NCBI GenBank assembly: GCA_965218435.1 | Contig: CBDCKW010000009.1 | Coordinates: 3,776,001-3,840,000 of the forward strand | Direction: 5' to 3' | Source of the DNA: Truepera sp. | GTDB lineage: Bacteria; Deinococcota; Deinococci; Deinococcales; Trueperaceae | DNA length: 64,000 nt | In this document: one piece after another, positions 15,599 to 34,742 of the stretch | Layout: each line of letters opens with the position of its first letter | Position numbering within the stretch: position 1 is the first letter of the stretch | Made by a program: the position numbers and the translations under genes | Notes under the pieces: generated by a model | What the model saw: the letters and a program-made list of their open reading frames with translations, nothing else | Database searches by the model: none | Told to the model about the DNA's origin: nothing

Positions 15599-15643
15599 AA
15601 TAACGGCGAGTGAAACGACGGGGGATGAACGAAGGTGAAGGTC

Positions 15644-16258
15644 ATGAGCGAGCTACCCAAAATGCAGCGAAAAGTTTACGAGCGCCTCTGCGAGGTTAAA
15701 GAGCGCACCGGTAGAGTGCCAGATTTAGCCGTTTTTGCCCGTGAGCTCAACATCCACTACGTCTCGCTGCGGCAACACCTCGAGGCCCTCCACCGCAAAG
15801 GCTTTTTGGTGTTTGAGAGCCGTGGCCGTGGCCAGTCGCCACGTTTGGAACTGCCCCTCAGAGCGACCGGTGTCCCGGTGTTAGGGAGCATCCCCGCCGG
15901 GCCTTTAAGCGAAGCGCTACAAGAGCCCGAGGGCTTTTTGCCGCTCAGCAACGCCCGCGAGCAGTTTGCGCTGCGCGTCAGCGGTAACTCGATGGCCGAC
16001 CTGATTCAAGACGGCGACATCGTGTTGTTCCGTCAAGGGACGCCCGAGCGGAGCGGCGAAATCTGCGCGGTCCGCGTCGAGAGTAGCGAAGTTACGCTCA
16101 AGTATGTGGATAGGCTCGAGCCCAAAACCATCGCCCTGCGGCCACATAACCCGCAGTATCCAACGCTGGCTGTCCCCGCCCGCGACGTTCATATCGAAGG
16201 CGTTTACGTCGGTTTAGTCCGCGGTGAACTTATTGGAGCCCTTTATGAAGACTGTTAG
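15644..16258 (+). CDS. LexA-like repressor with S24 peptidase domain
   Basis: N-terminal wHTH; IPAG cleavage site; VSGNSM (Ser) and VTLKY (Lys) dyad; alternative start GTG 15635. Confidence 0.88.
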   Translation: MSELPKMQRKVYERLCEVKERTGRVPDLAVFARELNIHYVSLRQHLEALHRKGFLVFESRGRGQSPRLELPLRATGVPVLGSIPAGPLSEALQEPEGFLPLSNAREQFALRVSGNSMADLIQDGDIVLFRQGTPERSGEICAVRVESSEVTLKYVDRLEPKTIALRPHNPQYPTLAVPARDVHIEGVYVGLVRGELIGALYEDC

Positions 16259-17233: not shown

Positions 17234-17986
17234 ATGGAAACTAACATAAACTGGGCTTCGCTTATCGAAAAACTTTCTGAACCTTTTCCCGTAAACGTCG
17301 TTTCGTGGCGGGCAGGGCGAACCTCAAAAGACGGGAAGCGGGCACAAGCACTCCCTTACGCTGAACCAAGAGCTTATGAAGACCGCCTCAATCAGCTTTG
17401 CCCCGGCGACTGGTCGGTTTTATTCAAGCCTTGGGGCGAGCACAAAGTCATCTGTGAACTGACGCTTTTTGGCGTCGTTCGTTCCTCTACCGGAGAGTAC
17501 GAAGAGAACACCAAAAATACCATTGCTCAAGGAACTGTCGCGGAAGCGCAGGCGTTCAAACGGGCGTGTTCCAAGTTCGGCCTGGGCCGTTATCTCTATG
17601 ACCTACCGGTTTCTTGGGTCGGTTACGACGAGAGTACCCGTCGCCTGACCGAAACCCCGAATTTGCCCGTGCCCGTCCGCGCAGCACCAAAACCCCCGGT
17701 AGCTGCGGTGATAGACGAACGCGCGACGGACGAACGTGCCGCCGAACGCGTAACCGAATCCACCGGCCCGCTACTCTCGGTAAGGCGTGCTGACGCGATG
17801 GGGCGTGAGCTCGAGAAACTCGGGTTTTCAAGCCGCGAGCAGCGCCGACTCGCCGAGCGAGTTTTAGGTCATGAAGTTGCCGCCTTTTCCGGTTTGACCG
17901 AAGCCGAGGCGCTCGAGGTCTGGAACGTCGCGCGGCGTTCGCCGCCCAAAGCCGCTCCGCGTTCGGCGCACGCGGCAGGGCTCTAG
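17234..17986 (+). CDS. ddrA: Rad52/Rad22-family ssDNA annealing protein, DdrA-like, with C-terminal helical extension
   Basis: KLSEPFP..VSWR, DRLNQLCPGDWS, AFKRACSKFGLGRYLYDLP match DdrA/Sak-type Rad52 signatures. Confidence 0.8.
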   Translation: METNINWASLIEKLSEPFPVNVVSWRAGRTSKDGKRAQALPYAEPRAYEDRLNQLCPGDWSVLFKPWGEHKVICELTLFGVVRSSTGEYEENTKNTIAQGTVAEAQAFKRACSKFGLGRYLYDLPVSWVGYDESTRRLTETPNLPVPVRAAPKPPVAAVIDERATDERAAERVTESTGPLLSVRRADAMGRELEKLGFSSREQRRLAERVLGHEVAAFSGLTEAEALEVWNVARRSPPKAAPRSAHAAGL

Positions 17987-18980: not shown

Positions 18981-20156
18981 TTAAGCTCTAGCGAGCGCCC
19001 GCTCCCGTAATTCGGCAACTTTATCGGTCTTCTCCCACGGGAACCCCGCCCGGCCAAAATGCCCGTAGGCGCTCGTCTCCCGGTAGATGGGGCGTTTGAG
19101 GTCAAGCTGCGCGATAATCGCGCCCGGACGGGCGTCGAACACATCTTGTAAAAGTTCGGCTAGCGTCTCATCGGGTAGGTCCGAAGTGCCGAAGGTGTCT
19201 ACATAGATACCCACGGGTTGCGCGACGCCGATAGCGTAGGCGAGCTGCACCTGGGCGCGTTTGGCGAGGCCCGCCGCCACGAGGTTTTTGGCCATATAAC
19301 GCGCGTAGTATGAGGCGCTCCGGTCAACTTTAGTTGGGTCTTTGCCGCTAAACGCGCCCCCGCCGTGCGGCGCGGCCCCGCCGTAGGTATCGACGATAAT
19401 TTTGCGGCCCGTCAGCCCTGCGTCTCCTTCCGGGCCACCGATCACAAAACGCCCGGTCGGGTTGATATAAAAGCGGGTGTCGGCGGTGAGCAGGTGCTCG
19501 GGGATAACGGCGCGGATGATGTGCGTCTCGAGGTCACCTTGAAGCTGTTCTAAACTCACATCCGGGTGGTGCTGCGCCGAGAGAACGACCGCTGTCACCT
19601 CGACCGGCGTGTCGCCGTCGTAAGCAATCGTGACCTGCGCTTTCCCGTCAGGGCGGAGGTAGGGGAGAAGTCCGGTTTTTCTCACCTCGGCCAGACGGTA
19701 CGTCAGTGCGTGGGCGAGGGTGATCGGCAGCGGCATCAGCTCGGGGGTTTCGTCCGTGGCGTAGCCGAACATCAACCCTTGATCGCCAGCTCCGATAAGA
19801 TCGTATGGGTCGCCGGTACCCGCGTTTTGTGAGTGCGCTACGCCCTGGGCAATATCGGGCGACTGTTCGGTAATAGCAATCAGCACCGCCGAGTGGTCGG
19901 CGTCAATGCCGTAAGCCGCGTCGGTATAGCCGACTTCACGAACCGTGTCGCGCACGAGCCGCTGCACGTCCACGTAGCCGTTACAGGTGACCTCACCGGC
20001 AATCAGCGCGAGACCCTTCGTAAGGATGGTTTCAGCCGCGACGCGGGCGTCGGGGTCAACGGCTAACATCGCGTCGAGCACGCTGTCGCTAATGCGGTCG
20101 GCGAGTTTGTCGGGGTGGCCTTCAGTCACCGATTCCGAGGTAATGAGTTTGTACAT
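18981..20156 (-). CDS. metK: S-adenosylmethionine synthetase
   Basis: [34 protein letters not shown]. Confidence 0.98.
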
Positions 20157-20419
20157 AGTAATGACTCCTAATAAAAGGGTTGGGGTTTTCTCAAGTATCG
20201 CAGCGTCTGCCGCGCAGGTTGGGCGAGTATAGCAAGGGGTAAGACGGGTTTAAGCACGCTACCTTACGGCTTTTAGGGGTGCTGACCCGCTTTTTGATGA
20301 CGTGTTTGCTACCTCGAGCAGCACTTCGAAATACGGCCAAGCGGCGGCTGGGCGTGTGCCTGTTTATTGGGTTCTGGTGCCGATATCCTACCTAAAAAGT
20401 GGGGGTATACTGGCGCTCT

Positions 20420-20959
20420 GTGTCTGTCTCTGCTTCGCACAACGTCGTTATCCGCCCTGCAACCGTCTCAGACGCTGCCGGACTAGGGACTTTGCACCGC
20501 GGCATCTACGGAGAGGGTCGCTGGTTTGTCGGCGACGGCTCCCCGACAACCGAAACGCTGCGCGGGCGAATTCGGGCGCTCGCTCCTACTCGTTCGCTCT
20601 ACCTGGTTGCGGCGGAAACCGGTGACTTAGGAACTAAAACAGCCCTTAAAAGTGAATTGCGGGGCTGGCTCGAGCTCCACCGTTTAACGCCGCAAAAGCT
20701 CGAGCACGTCGCGGTTTTGACGCTGGCGGTCGGGGAACCGTTTCGGCGGCGGGGGCTGGCCGGAGCACTGTTAGCGCACGCCTATCCGTGGGCGCGTGAG
20801 GTCGGCGTGCTTAAAATTCAGCTGAGCGTCCGAGCTAGAAACGCAGCGGCAGTGTCGCTCTACGAGCGCGAAGGCTTTGAACTCGAGGGCCGTGAACGGA
20901 GTCAGGTGTTTGACGACGAGGGTTTTGAAGATAACCTCCTGATGGCCAAGTTTTTGTAG
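20420..20959 (+). CDS. GNAT family N-acetyltransferase
   Basis: FRRRGLAGALL and NAAAVSLYEREGF; TATACT -10 before GTG 20420. Confidence 0.88.
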   Translation: MSVSASHNVVIRPATVSDAAGLGTLHRGIYGEGRWFVGDGSPTTETLRGRIRALAPTRSLYLVAAETGDLGTKTALKSELRGWLELHRLTPQKLEHVAVLTLAVGEPFRRRGLAGALLAHAYPWAREVGVLKIQLSVRARNAAAVSLYEREGFELEGRERSQVFDDEGFEDNLLMAKFL

Positions 20960-21014
20960 CCTTTGCGTCTTAGCTCCGTCAGGGCTGCCTTAGCCTAGTC
21001 TTATACTTATGGTG

Positions 21015-21557
21015 ATGGATACGCCTAGTCTAGCCTCGAGTATACGAATTGGTGAATGGCCCGAGCAGCGTGTCGCGCTCTTTGTGGATACGCAAAACCT
21101 CTACTACGCCGCCCGCGACGTTTATAGCCGCCACGTAGACTATGAAACGTTGTTGTCGCTGAGTATCCGGGGCCGCCACTTGGCGCAGGCGAGCGCCTAT
21201 GTGGTCGAGCGTGAAGGGGAGGCGACCGCCTACGGCTTTGTCACCAAACTCTCGTCGCTCGGTTACCGGGTTCGCCGCCGTAAAGTGCGCGTTCACCGCG
21301 CCGACAGCGGTGGACGGCCCGTGTTAGAAGGCGATTGGGATATGGGCGTCGCTGCCGACATCGTACGGGCGTGGGAGTTTGTCGAGGTGATTGTCTTGGC
21401 GAGTGGCGATGGGGATTTTGTGCCTCTGTTAGAACTGGCGCAGCAGCGGGGGAAACGCGTTGAGGTGTTGTCATTTCGGGAAGCCTCCTCTCAACTCCTC
21501 TTAGACATGGCCGACGCGTTTCAGAACCTCGCCGATGTTCCTGATATATTCGTCTAA
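21015..21557 (+). CDS. NYN domain (LabA/DUF88) protein
   Basis: FVDTQNL, DWDMG, LASGDGDFVPL. Confidence 0.9.
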   Translation: MDTPSLASSIRIGEWPEQRVALFVDTQNLYYAARDVYSRHVDYETLLSLSIRGRHLAQASAYVVEREGEATAYGFVTKLSSLGYRVRRRKVRVHRADSGGRPVLEGDWDMGVAADIVRAWEFVEVIVLASGDGDFVPLLELAQQRGKRVEVLSFREASSQLLLDMADAFQNLADVPDIFV

Positions 21558-21831
21558 ACCAGTCTAAAAATCCAGCTGGGCAGTGTCGGCATTTGCTTTT
21601 ATCGTTATGCTCTAAGTGTGTAAAGATGCTGTTTTCTTTTGTAAGCTGGTAGCTTCCGACTTCTTTATTCTGAATTCTTACTTCTTTTAGATAGCACGCT
21701 GGAAACGCTGCAAGCTGACTTTAGAAGGCTGCCAGACCCCAGCAATTGGGTTGACCACCGCTGAGGGTAGACTCAGCTTCACGTAGGGTAAAGTGTGAGT
21801 CTGTTACCAACCATCTCTTTGAGGCGTCGTT

Positions 21832-23325
21832 ATGGCTGCTGACCCGACCCCCAACTTAACTCCTGATTTGAACAAAGTCGCCGCCCGCTATGAAGCGGCG
21901 CTGCCCGCCGGTACGCTGCTGAGTTTTCCGGTGACTCAACTTGACGCAACGGGCGTACCGTCGTGGAGCGTGACGCTGATTCCGGGGAGTCCGAGCGGGG
22001 GTCACGGTTACGGCTGGGGCGACGCGCAAGCTAAAGTGAGTGCGCTGGGTGAGCTGCACGAACGGTTGCAAAGCCAACTCGTCATCCCGACGCTACCGAC
22101 CGAGCGGGCGTCATACGCTGAGCTCATACAAACTTACGGGGAACAGGTTGTCACCGACCCATTGACGCTTTCGCTCCCGGCAGGGAGCCCTTACACGCCG
22201 GAGACGCCCCGTTTGTGGGTCACGATGACGCGTTTTGGTACCGGTGAGGCGGTCTGGGTCCCGTTAGAAACGGCAGCCTCGAGCCCCGCTGAACTCCCTA
22301 CCGGCTACGAGCCCCTTTACTTAAGCGTTTCCAACGGTCTCGGCGCAGGGTTTAGTACCGAGCAGGCCCTCAGCCACGCCGTGTTTGAACTGTTACAGCG
22401 CGACGGCAATAGCGTCAACTACCGGGCACTCGATCAGGGCGTCGGGGTTGACCTCGCCGGGGCCGAGTTGCCGGAGCGGGTGACGGGCTTGCTGAGGCGT
22501 TTTGCCGATCTCGGGGTAGACGTGCAGGTCAAGCTCGCGGCGACCGACTTCGGCCTGACCAATGTCTACGTCGTCGGGGCAAATCCGGCGGGGGAGACGG
22601 TAGGAGCGTCAGTGGGCATTATGGCGGCGGGCGCAGGCGAGGCGTGTCATCCGGCTAAAGATGTGGCCCTCGAGAAAGCCCTGCTGGAATTCGCCGCCGC
22701 CCGGACTCGTTTGGCGTTTAATCACGGGTCTCTGGAGCGCGTGCAGGAGCTTGCGCCGCCGGGGTATCTCGAGACTTATCAGCGGGCATTCGGTAACCTG
22801 CCCGAAGAGGCGCGGGCGCTTTCAGCGATGCAGGCGTGGCTACAGCTCGAGCCCAAAACGCTCCGTGACCGTTTAGCAAAAGTTTATGAAGTCCGCCGTC
22901 AAGTGCCGTGGCGTGAGCTGCCACACGCGCAACCCGCCGACCCACTGACCGACGCCGTAACGCGGCTCGCAGGCTTTGACCTGCTCTACTTAGAACTCGC
23001 CAGCCCCAAAGCTCGAGAGCACGGCGTCACTGCAGTAAAGGCGGTGGTACCGGGGCTCGAGGTCGAAACGGTCAGCTATACCCGCCTGGGTGCGCGCAAC
23101 CTGACCCGGTTACTGGACAGAGAAAGTCCGTTTGCCGGACTGGGTATGCCCCCGGCCGGAGCCGCACCGATTCGGCTGACCGAAGAGGCTGAGGCTGCGT
23201 TCGGCACTCCCGCATGGCTCGGTATAGAAGCCCTGACCCGCTTTGCCGACCCTCTTTACCCGCTCTACCGTGAACCCAGCCGCCACGCGGCGCGTTGGGC
23301 TGAACTGGATACACTAGACCGGTGA
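21832..23325 (+). CDS. YcaO-family protein
   Basis: SALGELHER, SNGLGAG, ELLQRDG, KALLEFAAAR, VVPGLE motifs of the YcaO ATP-binding fold. Confidence 0.85.
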   Translation: MAADPTPNLTPDLNKVAARYEAALPAGTLLSFPVTQLDATGVPSWSVTLIPGSPSGGHGYGWGDAQAKVSALGELHERLQSQLVIPTLPTERASYAELIQTYGEQVVTDPLTLSLPAGSPYTPETPRLWVTMTRFGTGEAVWVPLETAASSPAELPTGYEPLYLSVSNGLGAGFSTEQALSHAVFELLQRDGNSVNYRALDQGVGVDLAGAELPERVTGLLRRFADLGVDVQVKLAATDFGLTNVYVVGANPAGETVGASVGIMAAGAGEACHPAKDVALEKALLEFAAARTRLAFNHGSLERVQELAPPGYLETYQRAFGNLPEEARALSAMQAWLQLEPKTLRDRLAKVYEVRRQVPWRELPHAQPADPLTDAVTRLAGFDLLYLELASPKAREHGVTAVKAVVPGLEVETVSYTRLGARNLTRLLDRESPFAGLGMPPAGAAPIRLTEEAEAAFGTPAWLGIEALTRFADPLYPLYREPSRHAARWAELDTLDR

Positions 23326-24353
23326 CCCAATTATCCACCCCGCTATCTTTTGAGCAGTTTGCGAAGTTGATGACGATCTGTGCCCGCCGTGACCTGCGGT
23401 TTGAAGGTGTCCCGATGTATTTGGGGTTGGCGGCTTTGGACAAAGCCGCCACCTTTACGCCCGCCGCCGCCGGAGCCGAGCTCGCCGCCGCTGCCGAGAC
23501 CTTGTTCGCCCAATTTTTAGCGCACAACCCCGACCCTTCGGTGCTCGAGCTGCGCCTGTTTGTCGAAACGCTCGCCCAAGGCTTGTTCAGCCCGACCCTG
23601 ACCCCGGCCCCTGAGCCGATTGATATTGTGCGGCCTGACGAAGAGGAGCCGTCCCTAATGCTTCCTAAACCGTTTGAGGCGTCGTTTAGGGAGCTATTGG
23701 CAAACTTTCGCGCGGGCAGCTACCTCCGCACCGTCAACTTTCACAGCACGCCGCGAAGTAGCGCCGCTTATTACGCCAAGCTCTTACGTTGGTACGCCGA
23801 GCACTTTTCCACACTAGATGAGGGTGATTTGGAGGAATTCTTTAACACCGGCCGCTGGCATAAAGAAAAGCCGCCGCTGCTGCTGTCTTTTTTTGAGGGA
23901 ACCCGTAACCACTATGAGGTCATCCTGCCGCTGTTAGAACGCTACGGACTCACCGCCTGGTTTTTTATCATTCCGCACTTTTTGGAGGTGCCGCCCGCCG
24001 AACAGGTAACCTACGCAAATACGCACTACATCGGCGTGACCCCCGGCGAGTACGGTGACGAGCGCCTCACGCTTTCTTGGAACGAGGTGCGGGAGCTGAG
24101 CCAAAACCACGTCATCGTCAGCCATACTTTGACGCACACCGCCCTGACGCCCGACTCGTCCGACGCGCTGATGATACGTGAAATTGAAGTGTCTAAACGC
24201 GTGTTAGAGGCGCAACTCGGCCGAGAGGTCGAGAGCTTCGCGTGGCTGCTCGGGGCTGAACACGGCCTCAACCCGAGGGCCGACGCCTATTTGCTGCGTG
24301 CCGGTTACCGCTATCTGTTCAGCACCTTTAAGCTGCAGCGGCTGCGCGGTTGA
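23322..24353 (+). CDS. Polysaccharide-deacetylase (NodB)-like protein with N-terminal extension
   Basis: VNFH, LPLLERYGLTAWFFI, LSWNEVREL, SHTLTH, EIEVSKRVLE; motif 1 is SFFEG rather than TFDDG; GTGA overlap with ycaO. Confidence 0.8.
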   Translation: MTQLSTPLSFEQFAKLMTICARRDLRFEGVPMYLGLAALDKAATFTPAAAGAELAAAAETLFAQFLAHNPDPSVLELRLFVETLAQGLFSPTLTPAPEPIDIVRPDEEEPSLMLPKPFEASFRELLANFRAGSYLRTVNFHSTPRSSAAYYAKLLRWYAEHFSTLDEGDLEEFFNTGRWHKEKPPLLLSFFEGTRNHYEVILPLLERYGLTAWFFIIPHFLEVPPAEQVTYANTHYIGVTPGEYGDERLTLSWNEVRELSQNHVIVSHTLTHTALTPDSSDALMIREIEVSKRVLEAQLGREVESFAWLLGAEHGLNPRADAYLLRAGYRYLFSTFKLQRLRG

Positions 24354-24433
24354 CGTGCGTTTCTCCAGGCCGTAGCAGTACGGGTGTGCATTTCTAAACG
24401 TTTTCCTAAAAAGGCGCAAGGTAGGATGCTACG

Positions 24434-24802
24434 GTGTCCGAGGTAACGCCTGAAACCACGCAGTCCGTGCTGCCCCTGACTGTGACCCTGTGTGGCCGTT
24501 TGGGAAAGCTCACCGCGATAACTGAACCGGCCGCTGAAGCCGTAACTTCAGGAGGCAACACGGTTGGCGCGGACGGTTGCTGGGTCTGGCGAACCGACGA
24601 AGGGTTTTTGCGTACGGCTACACCTACGCACAGCTCGCTCCTCAGCCTCGCTTGCGACGTAGCCGAGCTTTATCATCAGCACTGCACGCTGCAGCTAAGT
24701 GGCTTGCCCGGTGAAAGGCTCGAGGTGATCTGGCTCGAGCTGGCTGCGGATAATGCCTTACTGGTTTTTTTGAAGCCGGTCGTTCCTAATACCTACACTT
24801 AA
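24434..24802 (+). CDS. Hypothetical protein
   Basis: 122 aa; TAGGAT-N6-GTG leaderless start; followed by a terminator. Confidence 0.55.
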   Translation: MSEVTPETTQSVLPLTVTLCGRLGKLTAITEPAAEAVTSGGNTVGADGCWVWRTDEGFLRTATPTHSSLLSLACDVAELYHQHCTLQLSGLPGERLEVIWLELAADNALLVFLKPVVPNTYT

Positions 24803-24811
24803 CTAAAGACA

Positions 24812-24856
24812 AAAGCCGACTGAGAAGAGCGACCCACGCTTTTTTCAGTCGGCTTT
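24812..24856. terminator. Bidirectional intrinsic terminator
   Basis: AAAGCCGACTGAGAAGAGCG-ACCCA-CGCTTTTTTCAGTCGGCTTT between convergent genes. Confidence 0.85.
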
Positions 24857-24906
24857 GGCATCAGGCTTGGGACTCGCCCAAAACTAGCCCTACAACTTCT
24901 AACTTC

Positions 24907-25554
24907 TTAAAAGTATTCAGACCAAACAAATGAGTCTGGAATAGCTCCCGAGGTTAGGACGGTACCGCTCTCTGTAAAGCTTGTGATGACCTGATTCCAA
25001 CCGGGAGCCAAAGTGATGTCAACAGCACTAAGACCCGTTTGTGAACCTACTACACAGGTTGCTTTGCTCTTATAGGCGTCTGTGACATAAATCCACGCTC
25101 CACGTTTCCCAGAGCCTTGTGGGTCTCCAAGATTGTAAAAGCCTACGACTTCAGCACTTGTAGTCGGCGTCGTCACCGCAGATGCGACAATAGAAATGAG
25201 AAACGCTGCCTTCGGGTCTGCTGCGGTGCAACCAAGGGGTATAAAGGTGCTTTCATCAGGAGCCGAAAGCTCGATACGAAACGCGCCGCCCGTTGAGACG
25301 TTACTTTTGTATAGCGGTGGGGCGAGCTCGAGCGTATCAGAATCGGGATTGGAGCCGACCGAGGCCGAGTAACCGGCTACTAGGGTAATAAAAGCTTCAC
25401 CCGCAGACCAACCTGTGAGCATGCCGGAAATCTCAGTAACCGGAAAAGTTCCGGGTAGCTGTTCGGGCGGCTTGGTGACGACAGGCTCTCGACATCCCGC
25501 TAAGATAGTAGTACAGCAGGTTAACAGTAAGGCCAAACGGGTACCTCTTAGCAT
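24907..25554 (-). CDS. Hypothetical lipoprotein
   Basis: Lipobox ILAGC; AGGAG SD; LAPGWNQV beta-rich C-terminus. Confidence 0.75.
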   Translation of the reverse strand: MLRGTRLALLLTCCTTILAGCREPVVTKPPEQLPGTFPVTEISGMLTGWSAGEAFITLVAGYSASVGSNPDSDTLELAPPLYKSNVSTGGAFRIELSAPDESTFIPLGCTAADPKAAFLISIVASAVTTPTTSAEVVGFYNLGDPQGSGKRGAWIYVTDAYKSKATCVVGSQTGLSAVDITLAPGWNQVITSFTESGTVLTSGAIPDSFVWSEYF

Positions 25555-25740
25555 CTTATAGACTCCTAACCTATTAGCATCAGATATTCTTAAACAGCTT
25601 GACAGAGCTCATGTTGGTTCAGTGAATTTATCAAGCTTCGTGATTTCATAGTTTTTACATCTTTTGCTCACATTTTTGGTGCGACCGTTTTGAAACGTTT
25701 CTGACGAGACGCACATTAAACTACGCGCTATAGTCCTCTT

Positions 25741-26916
25741 ATGACCAACAACCCGGTATTTGTAACAGCCCTGCGCACGCCTGTCGGTAGAGCGCACAAA
25801 GGAATGCTCAAAGACACCCGCCCCGACGACCTCGGCGGCTTTATCTTAAAAGAGGCGTTGGCCCATACGACCGGTTTAGACCCGGAGCGTATTGACGATG
25901 TGCTTATGGGCAACGCGCACCCCGAAGGCGAAGCGGGGTACAACGTGGCGCGAATTGCGCTGCAGATTGCCGGATTGCCGGATTCGGTCGCGGGCGCAAC
26001 GGTCAACCGCTTTTGCGCCTCGGGCCTGCAGACGATGGTGCAGGGGTCGCAGGCAGTGGCGGCGGGGATGTGTGAGGTCGTCTTTGCCGGGGGTGTTGAC
26101 TGCACCTCGAGAGTACCGATGGGCGGTCACACGGTGTCGATTAATAAGGCGCTCTATAAACGTTTGCCGGGAGCCTACGCCACGATGGGGCAGACGGCTG
26201 AGGCAGTCGCAAGGAAGTTCGGGATCAGCCGTGAGCAGCAAGACGCGTTTGCCCTCCGGTCACACCAAAAAGCAGTGGCGGCGCAGGAAGCCGGACGTTT
26301 TGAGACTCAGGTCGTCCCGGTTAAGACGAGGGTCAAAGATGAAGCGGGTGACTGGCGCGAGGTCACCCTCACCAAAGACGAAGGCCCACGAGCCGGTACG
26401 ACGATGGAAAAGCTCGCAGGACTTAAAACGGTCTTTGCCGATGACGCCGCCGCGACGGTGACGGCGGGGAACTCGAGCCCCCTCAACGACGGCGCGGCGA
26501 TGACCGTGATGATGACCGACACTATGGCCCAAAGCCTCGGCCTTAAACCGCTCGCGTCCCTCGTGCAGGCGGCAGTGGTCGGCGTTGACCCTGCGATTAT
26601 GGGCGTTGGGCCGGTTCCGGCAATTCATAAACTGCTCGGCAAGGTCGGGATGCAGGTCTCAGATATTGACCTTTTTGAGATCAACGAAGCGTTTGCCAGC
26701 CAGTGTTTTTACGCTCAACAAGAGCTCGGGATTCCGGACGAAAAGCTTAATGTAAACGGCGGCGCAATCGCCATCGGTCACCCCCTCGGCGCGACGGGCG
26801 CACGGATTGCCGCCGACCTCTTTGTAGAGATGACCCGCCGCGACGCCGAATACGGCGTCATCTCGATGTGTGTCGGCGGTGGACAAGGGATGGCGGCACT
26901 GTTTAAGCGTGCCTAA
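25741..26916 (+). CDS. Thiolase (acetyl-CoA C-acyltransferase)
   Basis: NRFCASGL, EINEAFA, GHPLGATG, CVGGGQG. Confidence 0.96.
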   Translation: MTNNPVFVTALRTPVGRAHKGMLKDTRPDDLGGFILKEALAHTTGLDPERIDDVLMGNAHPEGEAGYNVARIALQIAGLPDSVAGATVNRFCASGLQTMVQGSQAVAAGMCEVVFAGGVDCTSRVPMGGHTVSINKALYKRLPGAYATMGQTAEAVARKFGISREQQDAFALRSHQKAVAAQEAGRFETQVVPVKTRVKDEAGDWREVTLTKDEGPRAGTTMEKLAGLKTVFADDAAATVTAGNSSPLNDGAAMTVMMTDTMAQSLGLKPLASLVQAAVVGVDPAIMGVGPVPAIHKLLGKVGMQVSDIDLFEINEAFASQCFYAQQELGIPDEKLNVNGGAIAIGHPLGATGARIAADLFVEMTRRDAEYGVISMCVGGGQGMAALFKRA

Positions 26917-27420: not shown

Positions 27421-28254
27421 GTGCCGAACGTCTCCCGCCGCGACTTTTTAGGTTACCTGCTGACCGGCGGGGCCGCGCTCTTGGCGGGCCGTGTTGCGGG
27501 CAACGTCTATCACGCCGAAGTTACGCACCACCGGCTGACGCTGCCCAACCTTAAAGCCCCGCTGCGCGTGGTGCAACTGAGCGACTTGCACTACGGCCCC
27601 TATATTCATGCCGGGTCGGTCAGAACGTGGGTGGCGCAGGCCCAAGCGGAGCAAGCTGACCTCACCGTGATTACCGGCGACCTGGTTGACCGCTGGTTGA
27701 GACGGCCTTTAGAACCGCTGACCGAGGCGCTTGCGGGTCTCAGTGCGCCGCTCGGCGTCTGGGCGTGTTTGGGTAACCACGACCGTGTTCGCTTCAAAGA
27801 CCGTATCGGCGTCCTCGAGGCCGCTCTAGCCGAAGCCGGGGTTACGCTCTTAGTCAATCAGGGTAAGCCACTCCGAGATGACCTTTATCTGGCCGCCGTA
27901 GACGACTACAGCACGGGTTACCCAAACTTGGGGGCAGCCCTTAAAGATGCGCCGGGGCGTATGGCGACGCTGCTACTCTGCCACCAACCCGACTACTTCC
28001 CGCAGATGACCATGCACACCGACCTGACGCTGACTGGACACACGCACGGTGGTCAGGTGCAGCTGCCTTTTATCGGCGCACCGGTCACCTCGTCGGCTTA
28101 CGGCGAGCGTTACCTCGAGGGCTGGGCACCGCCACCCGACCGGCGCTTCGGCAAAGCCTACGTCGTCCGGGGACTGGGTGTGAGCTTTTTGCCGGTGCGT
28201 CTAAATTGTCCGGCAGAGCTGGCGGTATTTGACATTTCTCCCGCAAACCTTTAA
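27421..28254 (+). CDS. Metallophosphoesterase (YkuE-like) with twin-arginine-like N-terminus
   Basis: SRRDFL; SDLH, TGDLVD, LGNHD, GHTHGGQ. Confidence 0.9.
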   Translation: MPNVSRRDFLGYLLTGGAALLAGRVAGNVYHAEVTHHRLTLPNLKAPLRVVQLSDLHYGPYIHAGSVRTWVAQAQAEQADLTVITGDLVDRWLRRPLEPLTEALAGLSAPLGVWACLGNHDRVRFKDRIGVLEAALAEAGVTLLVNQGKPLRDDLYLAAVDDYSTGYPNLGAALKDAPGRMATLLLCHQPDYFPQMTMHTDLTLTGHTHGGQVQLPFIGAPVTSSAYGERYLEGWAPPPDRRFGKAYVVRGLGVSFLPVRLNCPAELAVFDISPANL

Positions 28255-28450
28255 GAAGTAAAATGTAAGAAATCTCACATCGTTCTATGAGTAACATGAT
28301 AATAATAGGACAAAATTAACTTCACAAAGGAATAGAACCGCTCAGCGTTCACCTCAACCAAAGTCTGGATAGACACTTGTAAAAGGTAGTTTTCCGGCTT
28401 CTAAACCCTTCTGGCTTGCAGAAAACTGGAGTTGGGTATGAAAAACAGTA

Positions 28451-29425
28451 TTGGTGGTTCGTCGGTGGTTCGTCGGTTTAGGAGTGCCCCTTTTACTTGC
28501 AGCGTGTTCGTCAACCCCTAATTTTAATTCTGAAGTTGCAACAACAGCAGAAAGCGTTGATTATCTAGCTGTCGAGCAGTATAAACCCTCGTTACCCGTT
28601 GTAGACGCGGCTACCTTGTCCGACGAAGCGTTGGCAGAAACAAAGTCCAAAGGTGACAAAAAGGTTCTTAAAGAGTTTAAGTTCAAAGACGGTAGTGTTA
28701 CCAGCTATATAACCGTTGGAGATTACGTTGTCGAGGGCGATCTGTTTTTAGGTACAATCGAGGAATTTGAAAATCAACTCAAGATTAAGAACGACAAGCT
28801 CAGTTCCAATGAACCATTGCTGTCACCTCAAGGTGCGTTTTTAGCTGACGTTAGAAGATGGCCTGGTGGCATTATTTATGTGGATTCGGCACCCTTAACG
28901 CCAACGTTCACGGCCTCCCAGAATCAAGACATTCAAGACGCGATGAATATCTACAACAACCGGACTGATATCAAGTTCAGGTTAGCTTCCAGCGGGAACC
29001 GAATCAAATTCACTAACACTAACAACGGGTGTTATAGCAACTCTTTAGGTATGGCTGGGAACGGCGTCCAGGTTGTGAATCTAGCGGACAACTGTTTTAC
29101 CAGCGCAAATGTGGGTACGATTATCCATGAACTTGGTCACGCCATCGGCATGATTCATGAGCACAATCGTCCAGAGAGGGACAATTATATAACGCCCTCG
29201 AGTAATCTGACTTCCTATGGACTCAGCCAATTTCAAAAGTCTGGGGCAACTGTGTGGAGTACATACGATTATCCATCTGTTATGCACTATCCGAAATATA
29301 CCTATGACACAAAGTTTGTAAAAGATCCTTCAAAGCCTATGTTCACGACTAAAGGGTATACCGGTGTTGTTCGAGGTCCAGGACTCTCGAACAAAGACGT
29401 TAGCACAGTCAACTCAGCTTATTAA
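28451..29425 (+). CDS. Astacin-family (M12A) metalloprotease lipoprotein; 5' end possibly frameshifted from ATG 28438
   Basis: Lipobox LLAAC; HELGHAIGMIHEHNRPERD; Met-turn SVMHY; low GC. Confidence 0.88.
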   Translation: MVVRRWFVGLGVPLLLAACSSTPNFNSEVATTAESVDYLAVEQYKPSLPVVDAATLSDEALAETKSKGDKKVLKEFKFKDGSVTSYITVGDYVVEGDLFLGTIEEFENQLKIKNDKLSSNEPLLSPQGAFLADVRRWPGGIIYVDSAPLTPTFTASQNQDIQDAMNIYNNRTDIKFRLASSGNRIKFTNTNNGCYSNSLGMAGNGVQVVNLADNCFTSANVGTIIHELGHAIGMIHEHNRPERDNYITPSSNLTSYGLSQFQKSGATVWSTYDYPSVMHYPKYTYDTKFVKDPSKPMFTTKGYTGVVRGPGLSNKDVSTVNSAY

Positions 29426-29500
29426 TATCTAAGTTCACATCTTAGCTATGTTCATCACTCAAAGATTAAGTGGTGAACATAGTTGTGTCTGGGAGATTAC

Positions 29501-30439
29501 ATGTCCTACAAGTTTGCCTATGTTTTGCTTTCAATCTTCACATTGCTAAGTGCTTGTAACCAAACACCGCCCCCAGAAGTTGGGCCGATAGATTACCGAA
29601 CCGATCCCCGCATTTTGCGCGGCGTCTGGGCAGGTAAGAATGAAAATGGCGTATCCCTGAAACTCAATCTCAAAACGAACGGCCCGACTGAACAGGAGTA
29701 TTTTTTTACAGGGACGTTTAAGTTGGGGGACGCATCAGAGCTTCCTGTTACAGGCCAGGTGGTAACGTCCCTCACAAACGTTCCTCTATCACCTGCTCAG
29801 CAAGCCGATGCGCTACCTTGCGACAAAGATGTTACAGGTGCCATTACTAATTTGCTTGGAAACCCAGTCGAATTGCGATACGACATCTGCGGCACCATAC
29901 CGGCGGGTTCACCTCCAGAATTTCAGATGACGTTAGTGGATCGGAACGGCCCCGAGCCTATCATTAGTAAATTTGTACTCACAAAGCAACCTGATGAACC
30001 TGTGCCAAACTTTCTAGTCAAAGGCACGGTTACGAGGCTTAGAGGCGTGCCTTTTACCTACGATGGCGAGTTCATTTTCACCAAGTCTTCGCGTGCCGTT
30101 GTACAACTCTGGTATTCGGCCTCTTATTTTGGCGATGCGCCAAGGGAATTGGTAAAAGAGATGATAATCAAACCTATCACAAGTCTACCGATCTCGTTTA
30201 AGCTTGAAGGAGACGCTGAAAAGACGTTTGAGCGATTCGGGGACTATTTCCTGATTGTTGGGGTGCTGTCTGATGATAGTGGCGGAACAGGTAAAAATCT
30301 TCGTTTTGCCGCAGGCGATCTCATCAACGAAACCTATACGCCCGTTCTAGCCGCAGGGGTTGAAGTGGATGTTGAAGTTACAGGTCTCGAACCTTGTCCT
30401 CCACCTGGAACTAATGAAGGCGGCCTATGTGCTCCATAG
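29501..30439 (+). CDS. Lipoprotein with YbaY/YscW-like C-terminal domain
   Basis: GGGAG SD plus ATG 29501; lipobox LLSAC; AVVQL...DAP....LPISFKL pattern. Confidence 0.7.
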   Translation: MSYKFAYVLLSIFTLLSACNQTPPPEVGPIDYRTDPRILRGVWAGKNENGVSLKLNLKTNGPTEQEYFFTGTFKLGDASELPVTGQVVTSLTNVPLSPAQQADALPCDKDVTGAITNLLGNPVELRYDICGTIPAGSPPEFQMTLVDRNGPEPIISKFVLTKQPDEPVPNFLVKGTVTRLRGVPFTYDGEFIFTKSSRAVVQLWYSASYFGDAPRELVKEMIIKPITSLPISFKLEGDAEKTFERFGDYFLIVGVLSDDSGGTGKNLRFAAGDLINETYTPVLAAGVEVDVEVTGLEPCPPPGTNEGGLCAP

Positions 30440-30618: not shown

Positions 30619-31602
30619 TCAGCCGCCAATCGCGACCATCGTCCGTGTCCGCTGCGTCGGCGTGGTGATTCCTGAAGCGACTTTGCGGTGCGCCGCGACC
30701 AAAAACATCTCCTGAACTGCTCTTATAGGTTCGGTAGCCTGAAGCGCAGGCCGCAGGTCGAACTCGCGGTCATTCAAAAGGCAGGGGCGCAGTTTCGCGT
30801 CCGAGGTTAGCCGCATCCGGCTACAGGCGCCGCAAAAGGGTTCGGAGACCGGGTTGATAAACCCAACTGCACCCTGCCAGCCCGGAACTTTGAACAACCG
30901 TGCCGGGGCGCTCGGGTCGGTGGGCACAGCTTCAAGCGTGCCGAACGCCTCTTCAACCTTTGAACGAATCTCTTTACCTGCGACAAAACTTTCTCTATAC
31001 CGCTCAGCGTCGGCGTTATTGAGGTGCATGTATTCGATAAAGCGCACGTGGAGCGGTAACGTTTCAGTCAGCGCCGCAAGCCGGGTGATTTCCGAATCGT
31101 TGACGCCGCGCATCACGACCGCGTTGATTTTTACGGGGTGCAAACCCAGCGACAGCAGTTTATAGATGCTCTCCCACACGGGTTTGCTGCTGCCCCCGCC
31201 GGTCGCCTGCTTAAACACCCCTTCGTCTACGGCGTCGAGCGAGATGTTGACGCGGTGGAGTCCGGCGGCTAAGAGTTCAGGCAAGCGGCGTTTAAGGAGT
31301 GTGGCGTTGGTGGTAATGGCAATATCTTCGACCCCGGCGTCGCGCGCGTAGGCGATCATTTCGGGGAGTTCTTTACGGAGTAGGGGTTCGCCGCCGGTAA
31401 AGCGAACCGAGCTGACGCCTAAACCGACAGCCGCGTCAATGACGTGTGCGACGTCCGCTACGCTCACCGTGCCGAGTGGGTCTCTGTGGCCCATACCGAG
31501 TGGGTCGCAGTAGCTGCAGCGAAAGTTGCAGCGCGGCGTCACGCTGATTCTCAGGTCGCGGATCACGCGGCCGTAGCTGTCGGTCAGGGGTAACGTGTTC
31601 AC
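30619..31602 (-). CDS. moaA: GTP 3',8-cyclase
   Basis: LRISVTPRCNFRCSYC radical SAM motif, FCGACSRMRL...PCL, terminal IGG. Confidence 0.97.
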   Translation of the reverse strand: MNTLPLTDSYGRVIRDLRISVTPRCNFRCSYCDPLGMGHRDPLGTVSVADVAHVIDAAVGLGVSSVRFTGGEPLLRKELPEMIAYARDAGVEDIAITTNATLLKRRLPELLAAGLHRVNISLDAVDEGVFKQATGGGSSKPVWESIYKLLSLGLHPVKINAVVMRGVNDSEITRLAALTETLPLHVRFIEYMHLNNADAERYRESFVAGKEIRSKVEEAFGTLEAVPTDPSAPARLFKVPGWQGAVGFINPVSEPFCGACSRMRLTSDAKLRPCLLNDREFDLRPALQATEPIRAVQEMFLVAAHRKVASGITTPTQRTRTMVAIGG

Positions 31603-31841
31603 GTAAGGTTAAGGCTACCCAATCTGTGGGGGTGAGTCGAGAACCCAGCCGACACTCGGTGACAGTGTGCCTAACCGAGTCGCGTATCGGCGAGCTTAAG
31701 CTGTCCTTGGTTTGTGACTCGTACCACTCAACTTACTTTCATTATGCAAAACGCTCGAGTCCAGAAGGAGTTACTTTTCCGTCCGTCTTCTGGCGTGGTG
31801 TCCGGTAACCTTTTTGCCGGGTAGTCGGTTGGACTCGAGCC

Positions 31842-33002
31842 TCAGACGATGCGAACACGCCGGGTTATTTGCCCATTACTCTCCCAATAGGTGTGTTTGT
31901 TGGCAATCAAGGAGTCGGTTGGAGCTGGTTGAACGTTGCCGTCGGTGTCTACTGCTCGTGAACTGATGTCGTGTTCACCTATAGCAGGATCGTTCCAGTC
32001 CAGCTGCCAGAACCTCCAGGTGAACTCGGTGCCGCCTTGCTCGAGCACCGCAGGCTGCCACGCACCGCCGTCGATTTGTACTTTGACCTTCTGAATAGGC
32101 GCGCCCCAAGCTGCGCCCATGATGCGGTACGAGCCGTTTTCGGTACGGGTGACCCTGGCAGGGGCAGATTTGAGCCGTGTGCGCCCGACCGAGGTTTCTT
32201 TCCACACCTTTTCGCCGCCCTGCGACTCTTCACGAATCGTGACGTATTCGCGCGCCATAAAGTGTCCCATATAGCGTGTTGGCAGCACTTCGATACGCTC
32301 CAACCACTTGACGTTGGCGATGCCGTACCAGCCCGGCGCGATCAGCCTTACCGGAAAACCGTTGGCTTGCGGCAGCGGTTCGCCGTTCATCTCGTAGACG
32401 AGCAGGTTGTCTGGACTCAGCGCATCTTGAAGCGACATGCTGCGCGCAAAGTGCTGCGTCATGGGAATGTCGCGCACTTCGATATCACCCTTGTCACGTC
32501 CGTAGAAAACGACTTCAATGCCGTCTTCTTGTACTCCGGCTTCCTCGAGCACCGTAGCGAGGGGCGTCCCGGTCCAGGTGGCGTTACCAATGCCGCCCTT
32601 AAACCAGTCGAACCCGTTGTTGCCCGAACACTCGAGCGTAAAAACCGTTTCTTTACGTGGACGCGCCTTGAGTTCGTCTAAAGTCAAGGTGAGCGGATGC
32701 TCAACTAGGCCGGACAGCTCGAGCGTCCAGTCTTCCGCCCGGATAACCGGCCTCTCAAAGTGCGCCACGTTAAAAAATTGGCTGTTAGGCGTAATCCAGG
32801 AATCGAGTTTTTCCCAGTCGAGCAAGTTCTGCACCACGTCGGGCAGCGGAACTTCTCCAGGTCGATCAAGCCACGGGACGACCTTCTCACCGGGTCGGTT
32901 TTGGAAAGCCTGGGCCACGCCGGGAAAGGAAAACATGCTCAGTCCTGCTAAGACCGCACTCCGCTGAAGTAGTTCTCTACGCGACATGTTCGGTTCAGCC
33001 AT
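31842..33002 (-). CDS. Tat-exported sulfite-oxidase-family molybdoenzyme
   Basis: SRRELL Tat signal; LECSGN Mo ligand; MNGEPLP..NGFPVRL..PGWYG..NVKWL; dimerisation domain. Confidence 0.9.
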   Translation of the reverse strand: MAEPNMSRRELLQRSAVLAGLSMFSFPGVAQAFQNRPGEKVVPWLDRPGEVPLPDVVQNLLDWEKLDSWITPNSQFFNVAHFERPVIRAEDWTLELSGLVEHPLTLTLDELKARPRKETVFTLECSGNNGFDWFKGGIGNATWTGTPLATVLEEAGVQEDGIEVVFYGRDKGDIEVRDIPMTQHFARSMSLQDALSPDNLLVYEMNGEPLPQANGFPVRLIAPGWYGIANVKWLERIEVLPTRYMGHFMAREYVTIREESQGGEKVWKETSVGRTRLKSAPARVTRTENGSYRIMGAAWGAPIQKVKVQIDGGAWQPAVLEQGGTEFTWRFWQLDWNDPAIGEHDISSRAVDTDGNVQPAPTDSLIANKHTYWESNGQITRRVRIV

Positions 33003-34682: not shown

Positions 34683-34742
34683 TGCACCGGGGCCTTTGTC
34701 CACGGCGTGCCCGAAGAGTGTCCGCTGTACTACAATGTGGAC
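34683..34742. promoter_or_regulatory. Divergent promoter with three 11-bp-phased direct repeats
   Basis: TGTCCA 34697, TGCCCG 34708, TGTCCG 34719; TACAAT -10 at 34731 feeding leaderless ATG 34743. Confidence 0.65.

Follow-up and report, generated by a model that had tools for sequence, protein, structure and literature searches.

Two genes on the forward strand of a 64,000-nucleotide stretch of the Truepera sp. genome (contig CBDCKW010000009.1, positions 3,776,001 to 3,840,000; hereafter the window) form the pair analyzed here. The first encodes a protein of the YcaO superfamily and the second a protein with a NodB/CE4 fold, and they meet at the junction CGGTGACC, where the TGA stop codon of YcaO and the GTG start codon of its partner lie within one shared GTGA (Table 1). 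The original prediction for this DNA had proposed an orphan YcaO coupled to a degenerate NodB deacetylase in an amide-modifying two-gene system, and what it had read in the letters is borne out. The overlap is present, the YcaO has ELLQRD (residue 186) and no P.P.P pattern anywhere, and the partner has SFFEG (residue 189) and SHTLTH (residue 267) at the positions claimed. The N-terminal extension of about 110 residues attributed to the partner is equally real when compared with the short paralogs described below. Genes were called using simple open reading frame (ORF) rules and tblastn, and many functional names come from family matches below threshold.

Table 1. Features of the YcaO/NodB pair and its upstream region in the window.
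Feature	Positions	Strand	Remarks
YcaO-superfamily gene	21832..23325	+	497 aa
NodB/CE4-fold partner gene	23322..24353	+	343 aa
GTGA overlap, YcaO stop/partner start	23322..23325	+	Sequence read directly; translational coupling
N-terminal domain of partner	23322..23648	+	~Residues 1-110, mostly helical, EGVPMYL at residue 28
NodB/CE4-fold domain of partner	23649..24353	+	NFHST (H141), SFFEG for TFDDG, H268/H272
Conserved upstream stretch, ~70 nt	21745..21812	+	Near-continuous identity in the three-way alignment A3 of the genus; rest of the spacer not alignable

The pair is a conserved two-gene unit, as had been anticipated. Nine of the 128 genomes of the same family that were searched encode the YcaO and, in all nine, which span four genera, a NodB homologue lies immediately downstream, while the flanking genes change between genera. 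These genomes, like the 301 searched phylum-wide, are related, and the counts are hence nonindependent. Two others of the nine, G004 and G005, are from the same genus as the window's genome (G000), which is 100% complete by markers. Among the nine pairs, identity goes down to 53–56% for YcaO and 38–46% for NodB. A 79% identical locus is present in a Trueperaceae metagenome-assembled genome (MAG), and eight metagenomic pairs of YcaO and NodB matches, in each of which the longest contig has the same length for both, hint at further linked pairs. In relatives L124 and L125, the permease/YcaO/NodB junctions show the same 4-nucleotide overlaps. In one genome, G022, the YcaO gene (G022:C24:41328-42744; loci L006, L008, and L128) is split, residues 13–114 and 112–490 being in different frames, which points to a frameshift in that genome, due either to an error in sequencing or to a gene that is broken.

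As for the YcaO protein, its match to PF02624 (E = 4.5e-48, 164.7 bits against a cut-off of 25.7) covers profile positions 2–325 of 325 and places it in the YcaO superfamily. Several residues of the YcaO site motifs are conserved (E74/E77, N168-G-x-G-A-G, E186, R190, D191, E270, E286, and R291) and, going by the structure of Escherichia coli YcaO, may form an ATP/Mg2+ site. In alignment A1 of the clade, E77, N168, G169, E186, Q189, R190, D191, E270, E286, R291, Y479–P482, and H485 are invariant in 20 of 20 sequences, and the hallmarks of the clade are ELLQRDGN and a conserved C-terminal LYPLYREPxRH. However, the second Glu of the ExxERD motif is Gln189 in all 20 clade members, while it is Glu in MJ1094 and in the Methanopyrus kandleri YcaO. 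These two archaeal enzymes, which are of the McrA-thioglycine type, are the nearest solved structures in a profile search (6pe3, E = 1.9e-24, and 6ci7, E = 6.4e-09, respectively).

Members of the YcaO superfamily make azolines, thioamides, and amidines on peptide or protein backbones. The window YcaO, which is the only YcaO in the genome, has no named NCBIfam class, all its Pfam and NCBIfam matches being at the superfamily level. It falls outside the azoline-forming SagD-type class of thiazole/oxazole-modified microcins (TIGR03604, 102.8 bits against a cut-off of 219.25, with the P.P.P pattern lacking), the TfuA-associated or McrA-type thioamide class (TIGR03266, 79.2 bits against 365), and the E. 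coli-type class (NF040716, 13.6 bits against 700). Like the McrA-type enzymes, it is a single-domain protein with no fused E1-like domain, and it shares with them the motifs GxGxx(E)...E, NGL(G/A)xG, HxxxE..(E/Q)RD, and C-terminal (V/I)xPxxEV(E/Y)T. However, it differs by the Gln in ExxERD, the extra LYPLYREPxRH tail, and a carbohydrate gene context. Moreover, McrA-type enzymes carry out backbone thioamidation usually with TfuA, whereas TfuA (PF07812) has no match anywhere in the genome studied here. Similarly to E. coli YcaO, the window YcaO is acidic (calculated isoelectric point of 5.0) and is not surrounded by a cluster for peptides made by the ribosome and modified after translation (RiPPs) but, unlike it, is patchily distributed within the family and operon-linked.

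The surroundings of the pair confirm the predicted lack of RiPP machinery. Within about 10 kb, neither E1/Ocin-ThiF nor TfuA was found, nor any dehydrogenase or small ORF that is conserved. The genes present have housekeeping or otherwise unconnected functions and encode an S-adenosylmethionine (SAM) synthetase, a flavin mononucleotide reductase, a GNAT, an NYN-domain protein, a thiolase, and a response regulator. The E1-like partner (cyclo_dehy_ocin, TIGR03603) has no match in the whole genome. A SagB-like nitroreductase match about 966 kb away is uninformative since 9 of 14 control genomes are also hit by this model. No RiPP precursor gene was found beside the YcaO, although a distal one is conceivable. 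The only small forward-strand ORF in the upstream spacer, which encodes 24 residues (21616-21690, +), was rejected as a precursor peptide because it is not conserved in G004 and G005. In three relatives (L123–L125), YcaO begins within the permease gene or immediately next to it, so that a precursor gene would not fit upstream. The conserved stretch just upstream of the window YcaO (Table 1) is probably a promoter, operator, or 5' leader; it has no σ70 consensus match, a promoter/terminator scan gave nothing above shuffles, and Rfam gave no match on 20000-26000.

The partner belongs to the CE4/NodB group by both domain and fold. It matches PF01522 (Polysacc_deac_1) over residues 182–331 (E = 2e-11, 44.4 bits against a cut-off of 23.1). 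Its AlphaFold2 model, with a mean predicted local distance difference test (pLDDT) of 91, consists of a helical N-terminal domain (helices 10–21, 49–68, and 74–89; strand 30–38), a low-confidence linker with a pLDDT dip at residues 91–110, and a CE4 barrel. The best Foldseek matches are all CE4 proteins, i.e., PplD (6dq3), PgaB (4u10 and 3vus), BpsB (5bu6), and IcaB (4wcj), with E values from 4e-11 to 2e-8. The partner has the same fold and His-His metal motif as these enzymes, H268 and H272 of motif 2, H(S/T)xxH, being invariant in 22 of the 22 sequences of alignment A2. In contrast to them, it has Phe-Glu (F191-E192) for the Asp-Asp of motif 1, an extra NFH(N/S)TP strand, and the added N-terminal domain. 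In CE4 enzymes, the Asp-Asp of motif 1 provides the general base and a metal ligand. Canonical FDDG occurs in A2 only in the two most distant sequences, and other invariant residues are H141 in the NFH(N/S)TP strand, W253, R257, and E287. The PgaB equivalog model (TIGR03938) scores 31.9 bits against a cut-off of 321.9, which excludes the partner from that family. No N-terminal hydrophobic signal is visible by eye, and the protein is probably cytoplasmic.

Phylum-wide, strong partner homologues are present in 13 genomes, four of which (G293, G274, G275, and G219) have short homologues corresponding to residues ~110–342 only. The short copies are paired, in tandem in the first three genomes and with a separation of about 10 kb in G219. 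The 18–20 kb around these pairs revealed no YcaO. Motif 1 reads [F/Y][E/N/D] in the long and short forms alike. The replacement of Asp-Asp is also found in operons without YcaO, whose short paralogs presumably act alone. The view of the NodB protein as a degenerate substrate presenter is not supported, because the change is subfamily-wide and the partner would not be a decayed enzyme. Nor is there support for the idea that the N-terminal extension is specific to YcaO coupling, since it exists as a separate gene in YcaO-less operons. While the N-terminal domain has no Pfam family and no usable ESM Atlas match, a 130-residue ORF between the permease gene and the first short NodB gene matches it (hhalign 95.6%, E = 1.2e-8) and also matches the N terminus of the long form of G022 (tblastn, 1.7e-8), with equivalent ORFs in G274 and G275. 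In the genomes examined, long NodBs fused to the N-terminal domain are found only beside YcaO and group together in the NodB tree with a support of 83. Which short paralog is replaced by the long form does not emerge from this tree.

In the family, the pair is often part of an operon for a sugar importer. In six of the nine YcaO genomes (G008, G210, G022, G103, G183, and G222; three genera), genes are found on one strand in the order SBP_bac_1 solute-binding protein (SBP), two BPD_transp_1 permeases, YcaO, and NodB. The window's genome encodes an ortholog of this importer at G000:C9:3540806-3543940, the SBP gene being at C9:3542675-3543940, and its permeases share 69% identity with those of locus L124, from the family relative G103. 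The term "orphan" is thus to be qualified, given that the importer is operon-linked in these six relatives and encoded elsewhere in the window's own genome. Orthologs of the SBP (at least 52% identity, E = 3.5e-138 or better) are present in 14 of the 128 family genomes, including all nine with YcaO, and three further matches with 34–38% identity are probably paralogs. The SBP resembles binders of maltose, trehalose, and acarbose only generally (best E about 1e-19). In G008, a TacA-like antitoxin and a GNAT, i.e., a TacT-type pair, are encoded just downstream of NodB (L127:8200-9058) and are apparently unrelated.

The short NodBs have a comparable setting. In G293 and G274, the tandem genes follow an orthologous importer (61–71% identical to that of L124), while in G275 they adjoin it in divergent orientation. 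Because the 130-residue N-domain gene lies between the permease and the short NodB genes, there are two types of importer operon, importer/N-domain gene/NodB/NodB and importer/YcaO/fused N-domain–NodB. YcaO therefore holds the operon position of the second hydrolase. The short-form operon of G293 lies beside genes for a GH4 glycosidase, an IolB-like isomerase, an IlvD/Edd-type dehydratase, and a 2-hydroxyacid dehydrogenase. In G219, which belongs to another family (f2), the short NodBs are found among similar genes together with a GlmD-like deaminase, a NagK-like kinase, and an SBP_bac_5-type transporter. Most of these names are given by matches below curated cut-offs, the dehydratase being above the cut-off for dihydroxy-acid dehydratase models. 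Together, these neighbors suggest that an amino-sugar-containing glycoside is catabolized.

The YcaO clade extends well beyond this family. A word-based search returned 1386 matches to it, and at least 429 loci came from a single genome scan. The figures that follow come from the best 80 of these, some of which are on incomplete contigs, with neighbors counted by tblastn within 7 kb of the YcaO. The 80 loci are mostly 41–48% identical; one is a Trueperaceae pair, and the others are from Methylobacterium, Methylorubrum, Acetobacteraceae, other Alphaproteobacteria, Myxococcota, Armatimonadota, Verrucomicrobiota, Planctomycetota, and Actinomycetota, which makes at least six phyla. Genomes with the cluster are mostly Methylobacterium, lichen-associated Acetobacteraceae, Armatimonadota, Myxococcota, and Trueperaceae. 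Species of Methylobacterium and Methylorubrum that carry the cluster are amenable to genetic work. The most frequent neighbors are a GT4 glycosyltransferase (70/80 loci), a PIG-L de-N-acetylase (69/80), a GFO/IDH/MocA dehydrogenase (68/80), a 318-residue protein without a Pfam or NCBIfam family (65/80; e.g., L048:3816-4772), a xylose-isomerase-like TIM barrel (61/80), a myo-inositol-1-phosphate synthase (58/80), and a methyltransferase (56/80). A metallo-beta-lactamase-fold protein is found in 22 loci, an importer of the type seen in the family relative (query L124) in three, and the NodB partner in one. Anabolic genes of the cluster also include a GT2. A de-N-acetylase, of either PIG-L or NodB fold, is thus a recurrent neighbor of the YcaO.

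The cluster resembles the core of mycothiol and bacillithiol biosynthesis, with which it shares inositol-1-phosphate synthase and the GT4 (MshA/BshA) and PIG-L (MshB/BshB) families. However, matches of its GT4 and PIG-L proteins to the MshA/BshA and BshB models are weak and far below cut-offs (88 bits against 462 for MshA), no MshC/BshC-type ligase was seen in the YcaO cluster, and the YcaO, the methyltransferase, the IolG-like dehydrogenase, the xylose-isomerase-like barrel, and the 318-residue protein are additional. Some cluster-type loci have two or three YcaO paralogs, either in tandem (L011, L012, and L015; Myxococcota) or separated by GT4 and PIG-L genes (L025–L028, L032, L041, and L056; Armatimonadota and Verrucomicrobiota). 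These multi-YcaO loci often encode the metallo-beta-lactamase-fold protein as well.

The three importer-linked loci among the 80 outside our family are alphaproteobacterial (L021, L049, and L062, from Microvirga, Aureimonas, and an Aurantimonadaceae MAG), with importers 46–60% identical to that of L124. A 359-residue ORF after the YcaO of L021 was considered as a divergent NodB and rejected, being antisense to a permease gene. In phylogenies, all of which were built with FastTree only, the YcaOs of Trueperaceae group in a single clade (support 100), and those of the three importer-linked alphaproteobacterial loci branch within cluster-type sequences of Hyphomicrobiales. Across five genomes, a cluster marker was found in the two of cluster type and not in the three of importer type, and the importer SBP showed the reverse. 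The cluster-specific genes were not found in the window's genome.

Since the clade context combines carbohydrate and inositol genes with a recurrent de-N-acetylase, and peptide-modifying partners are lacking, the pair would process an imported, amide-bearing, sugar-like solute. We favor a reading, to which we assign a probability of about 0.4, in which the pair is a cytoplasmic, ATP-dependent amide-processing module that acts by hydrolysis. The solute would enter via the CUT1-type sugar ATP-binding cassette (ABC) importer and would most likely be a glycoside of an N-acylated amino sugar, which may be of the glucosaminyl-inositol type. YcaO would then spend ATP to activate the solute's carboxamide carbonyl, a chemistry known for the superfamily. 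The NodB-fold partner, which has the His-His pair and not the usual Asp general base, would perform or complete the C–N cleavage (i.e., de-N-acylation), and the products would be fed into sugar catabolism or salvage. YcaO would thus take the place that a second NodB paralog has in the sister operon. This reading rests on gene context: starting from demonstrated gene content, order, conservation, and fold, we infer the substrate class, division of labor, hydrolytic outcome, and use of ATP. The original prediction is in the end partly supported, gene context favoring the N-acyl sugar or small molecule that it had suggested over a peptide.

A precedent for how such a module may work, and for this only, is offered by 5-oxoprolinase PxpABC and caprolactamase. 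PxpA (LamB/YcsF) and NodB are members of one seven-stranded barrel superfamily. According to a published report, 5-oxoprolinase and caprolactamase, which are from other families, use ATP for lactam hydrolysis, thereby opening a stable amide (PMC8453981). Their ATP-using subunits have no sequence relationship to YcaO.

Several observations weigh against the reading that we favor. In the window's own genus, the pair follows GNAT and NYN genes and the importer is unlinked to it, being about 255 kb apart in the window's genome. In the alphaproteobacterial loci L021, L049, and L062, an HMM search found no NodB homologue nearby, and the importer is convergent with YcaO and not co-transcribed. In about 70 of the 80 loci of the wider clade, the context looks biosynthetic, with inositol-phosphate synthase and glycosyltransferases, and hydrolysis fits this less well than tailoring. 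As short NodB paralogs apparently function without YcaO, the need for an ATP-driven helper is not obvious. Use of ATP is itself an assumption, because the invariant Gln189 stands in for a Glu that is a Mg2+ ligand in other YcaOs. Finally, the nearest solved structures are those of peptide- or protein-modifying enzymes and, to our knowledge, all characterized YcaOs act on peptide or protein backbones.

In a second explanation, the substrate class is the same but the outcome is a non-hydrolytic tailoring. The de-N-acetylase would unmask an amine or otherwise prepare the substrate, and YcaO would make an amidine, an oxazoline-type ring, or a thioamide. YcaOs are known to form amidines through the attack of a free amine, as in bottromycin and klebsazolicin. 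The product would be an end metabolite, for example a protectant or cofactor, whose precursor is either built by the inositol/GT4/PIG-L cluster or imported by the ABC operon. The anabolic genes of the cluster (inositol-1-phosphate synthase, GT4, GT2, and methyltransferase) and the presence beside YcaO of de-N-acetylases of two unrelated folds fit this well. The complementary "make or take" distribution of cluster marker and importer (n = 5) points the same way, and the nesting of importer-type alphaproteobacterial YcaOs within the cluster-type clade suggests the same reaction in both settings. Nevertheless, we consider tailoring, the main rival, somewhat less likely than hydrolysis for the pair, since the family operon comprises importer, YcaO, and NodB only, with no exporter or further tailoring genes, the YcaO-less sister operon lies among catabolic genes, and the search of the genome for TfuA revealed no sulfur-delivery partner.

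A third explanation, which we regard as improbable, is that YcaO modifies a distal protein or peptide, for example by backbone thioamidation of a housekeeping protein or a similar change, or the NodB partner itself, the carbohydrate neighbors reflecting regulation or coincidence. The best solved relatives are indeed of the McrA-thioglycine type, and the superfamily-level matches leave room for such an activity. Furthermore, a recent report states that E. coli YcaO thioamidates the backbone of uL16 and links acidic YcaOs, as is the window protein, to basic protein substrates (Biochemistry 2026, PMC13063428). Against this stand the association with sugar and inositol genes, which spans at least six phyla, the lack of a TfuA match in the genome, scores far below the cut-offs of the two thioamide-type classes, and an occurrence in so few of the family genomes, which is unlike a housekeeping modification. 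As for the possibility that YcaO and NodB are functionally unlinked and merely inherited side by side, it finds some comfort in the NodB-less alphaproteobacterial loci and in a complex prediction that gave no usable answer on physical interaction (score 0.00, without controls, and used neither for nor against binding), but the 4-nucleotide start/stop overlap, the adjacency in 9/9 genomes despite changing flanks, and the restriction of long fused NodBs to one tree group beside YcaO make it most implausible.

Other features of the window are of separate interest. The GNAT (20399-20959, +) and NYN-domain (21009-21557, +) genes lie directly upstream of YcaO, the former being syntenic in G004 and G005 and the latter in G004; the GNAT might conceivably re-acylate the product of the pair. 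Farther upstream, a Rad52/Rad22-family protein (17234-17986, +; PF04098, E = 2e-6) is encoded near a LexA-like repressor (15635-16258, +) with Peptidase_S24 and LexA DNA-binding domains. This agrees with the placement in Deinococcota, as DdrA of Deinococcus belongs to the Rad52 family. Downstream of the pair, GC content falls to 0.469 at 28001-30000, compared to about 0.57 elsewhere, and this stretch, which may be acquired DNA, holds an astacin-family metallopeptidase gene (28451-29425) and a 318-residue ORF without family. It is followed by a MoaA-like radical SAM protein (Radical_SAM and Mob_synth_C) adjoining a sulfite-oxidase-type molybdopterin oxidoreductase (30619-33002, −), and by a 1006-residue STAND-type NTPase (NACHT/NB-ARC/AAA_16) with C-terminal TPR repeats (34707-37727, +).

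In the articles searched, we found no YcaO tied to inositol, to deacetylase/glycosyltransferase, to polysaccharide deacetylase, to Methylobacterium, or to sugar ABC transporter contexts, and an earlier mention in network analyses is possible (e.g., in the data sets of PMC13063428). One paper on Acetobacteraceae mentions a YcaO and regards it as an azoline RiPP enzyme. With odds slightly better than even, we propose that this is the first YcaO clade with a non-peptide substrate, an N-acyl amino-sugar or inositol glycoside that is either built or imported, present in at least six phyla and served by a de-N-acylase recruited independently from the PIG-L and NodB folds. Alongside it, a CE4 subfamily has been defined that has an altered active site, in which Asp-Asp is missing and an invariant His is new, and an accessory domain that had escaped notice. 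If true, ATP-dependent amide activation would extend to small-molecule carbohydrate chemistry, in a clade of at least 429 loci, and the finding would point to an undescribed inositol-glycoside metabolite.

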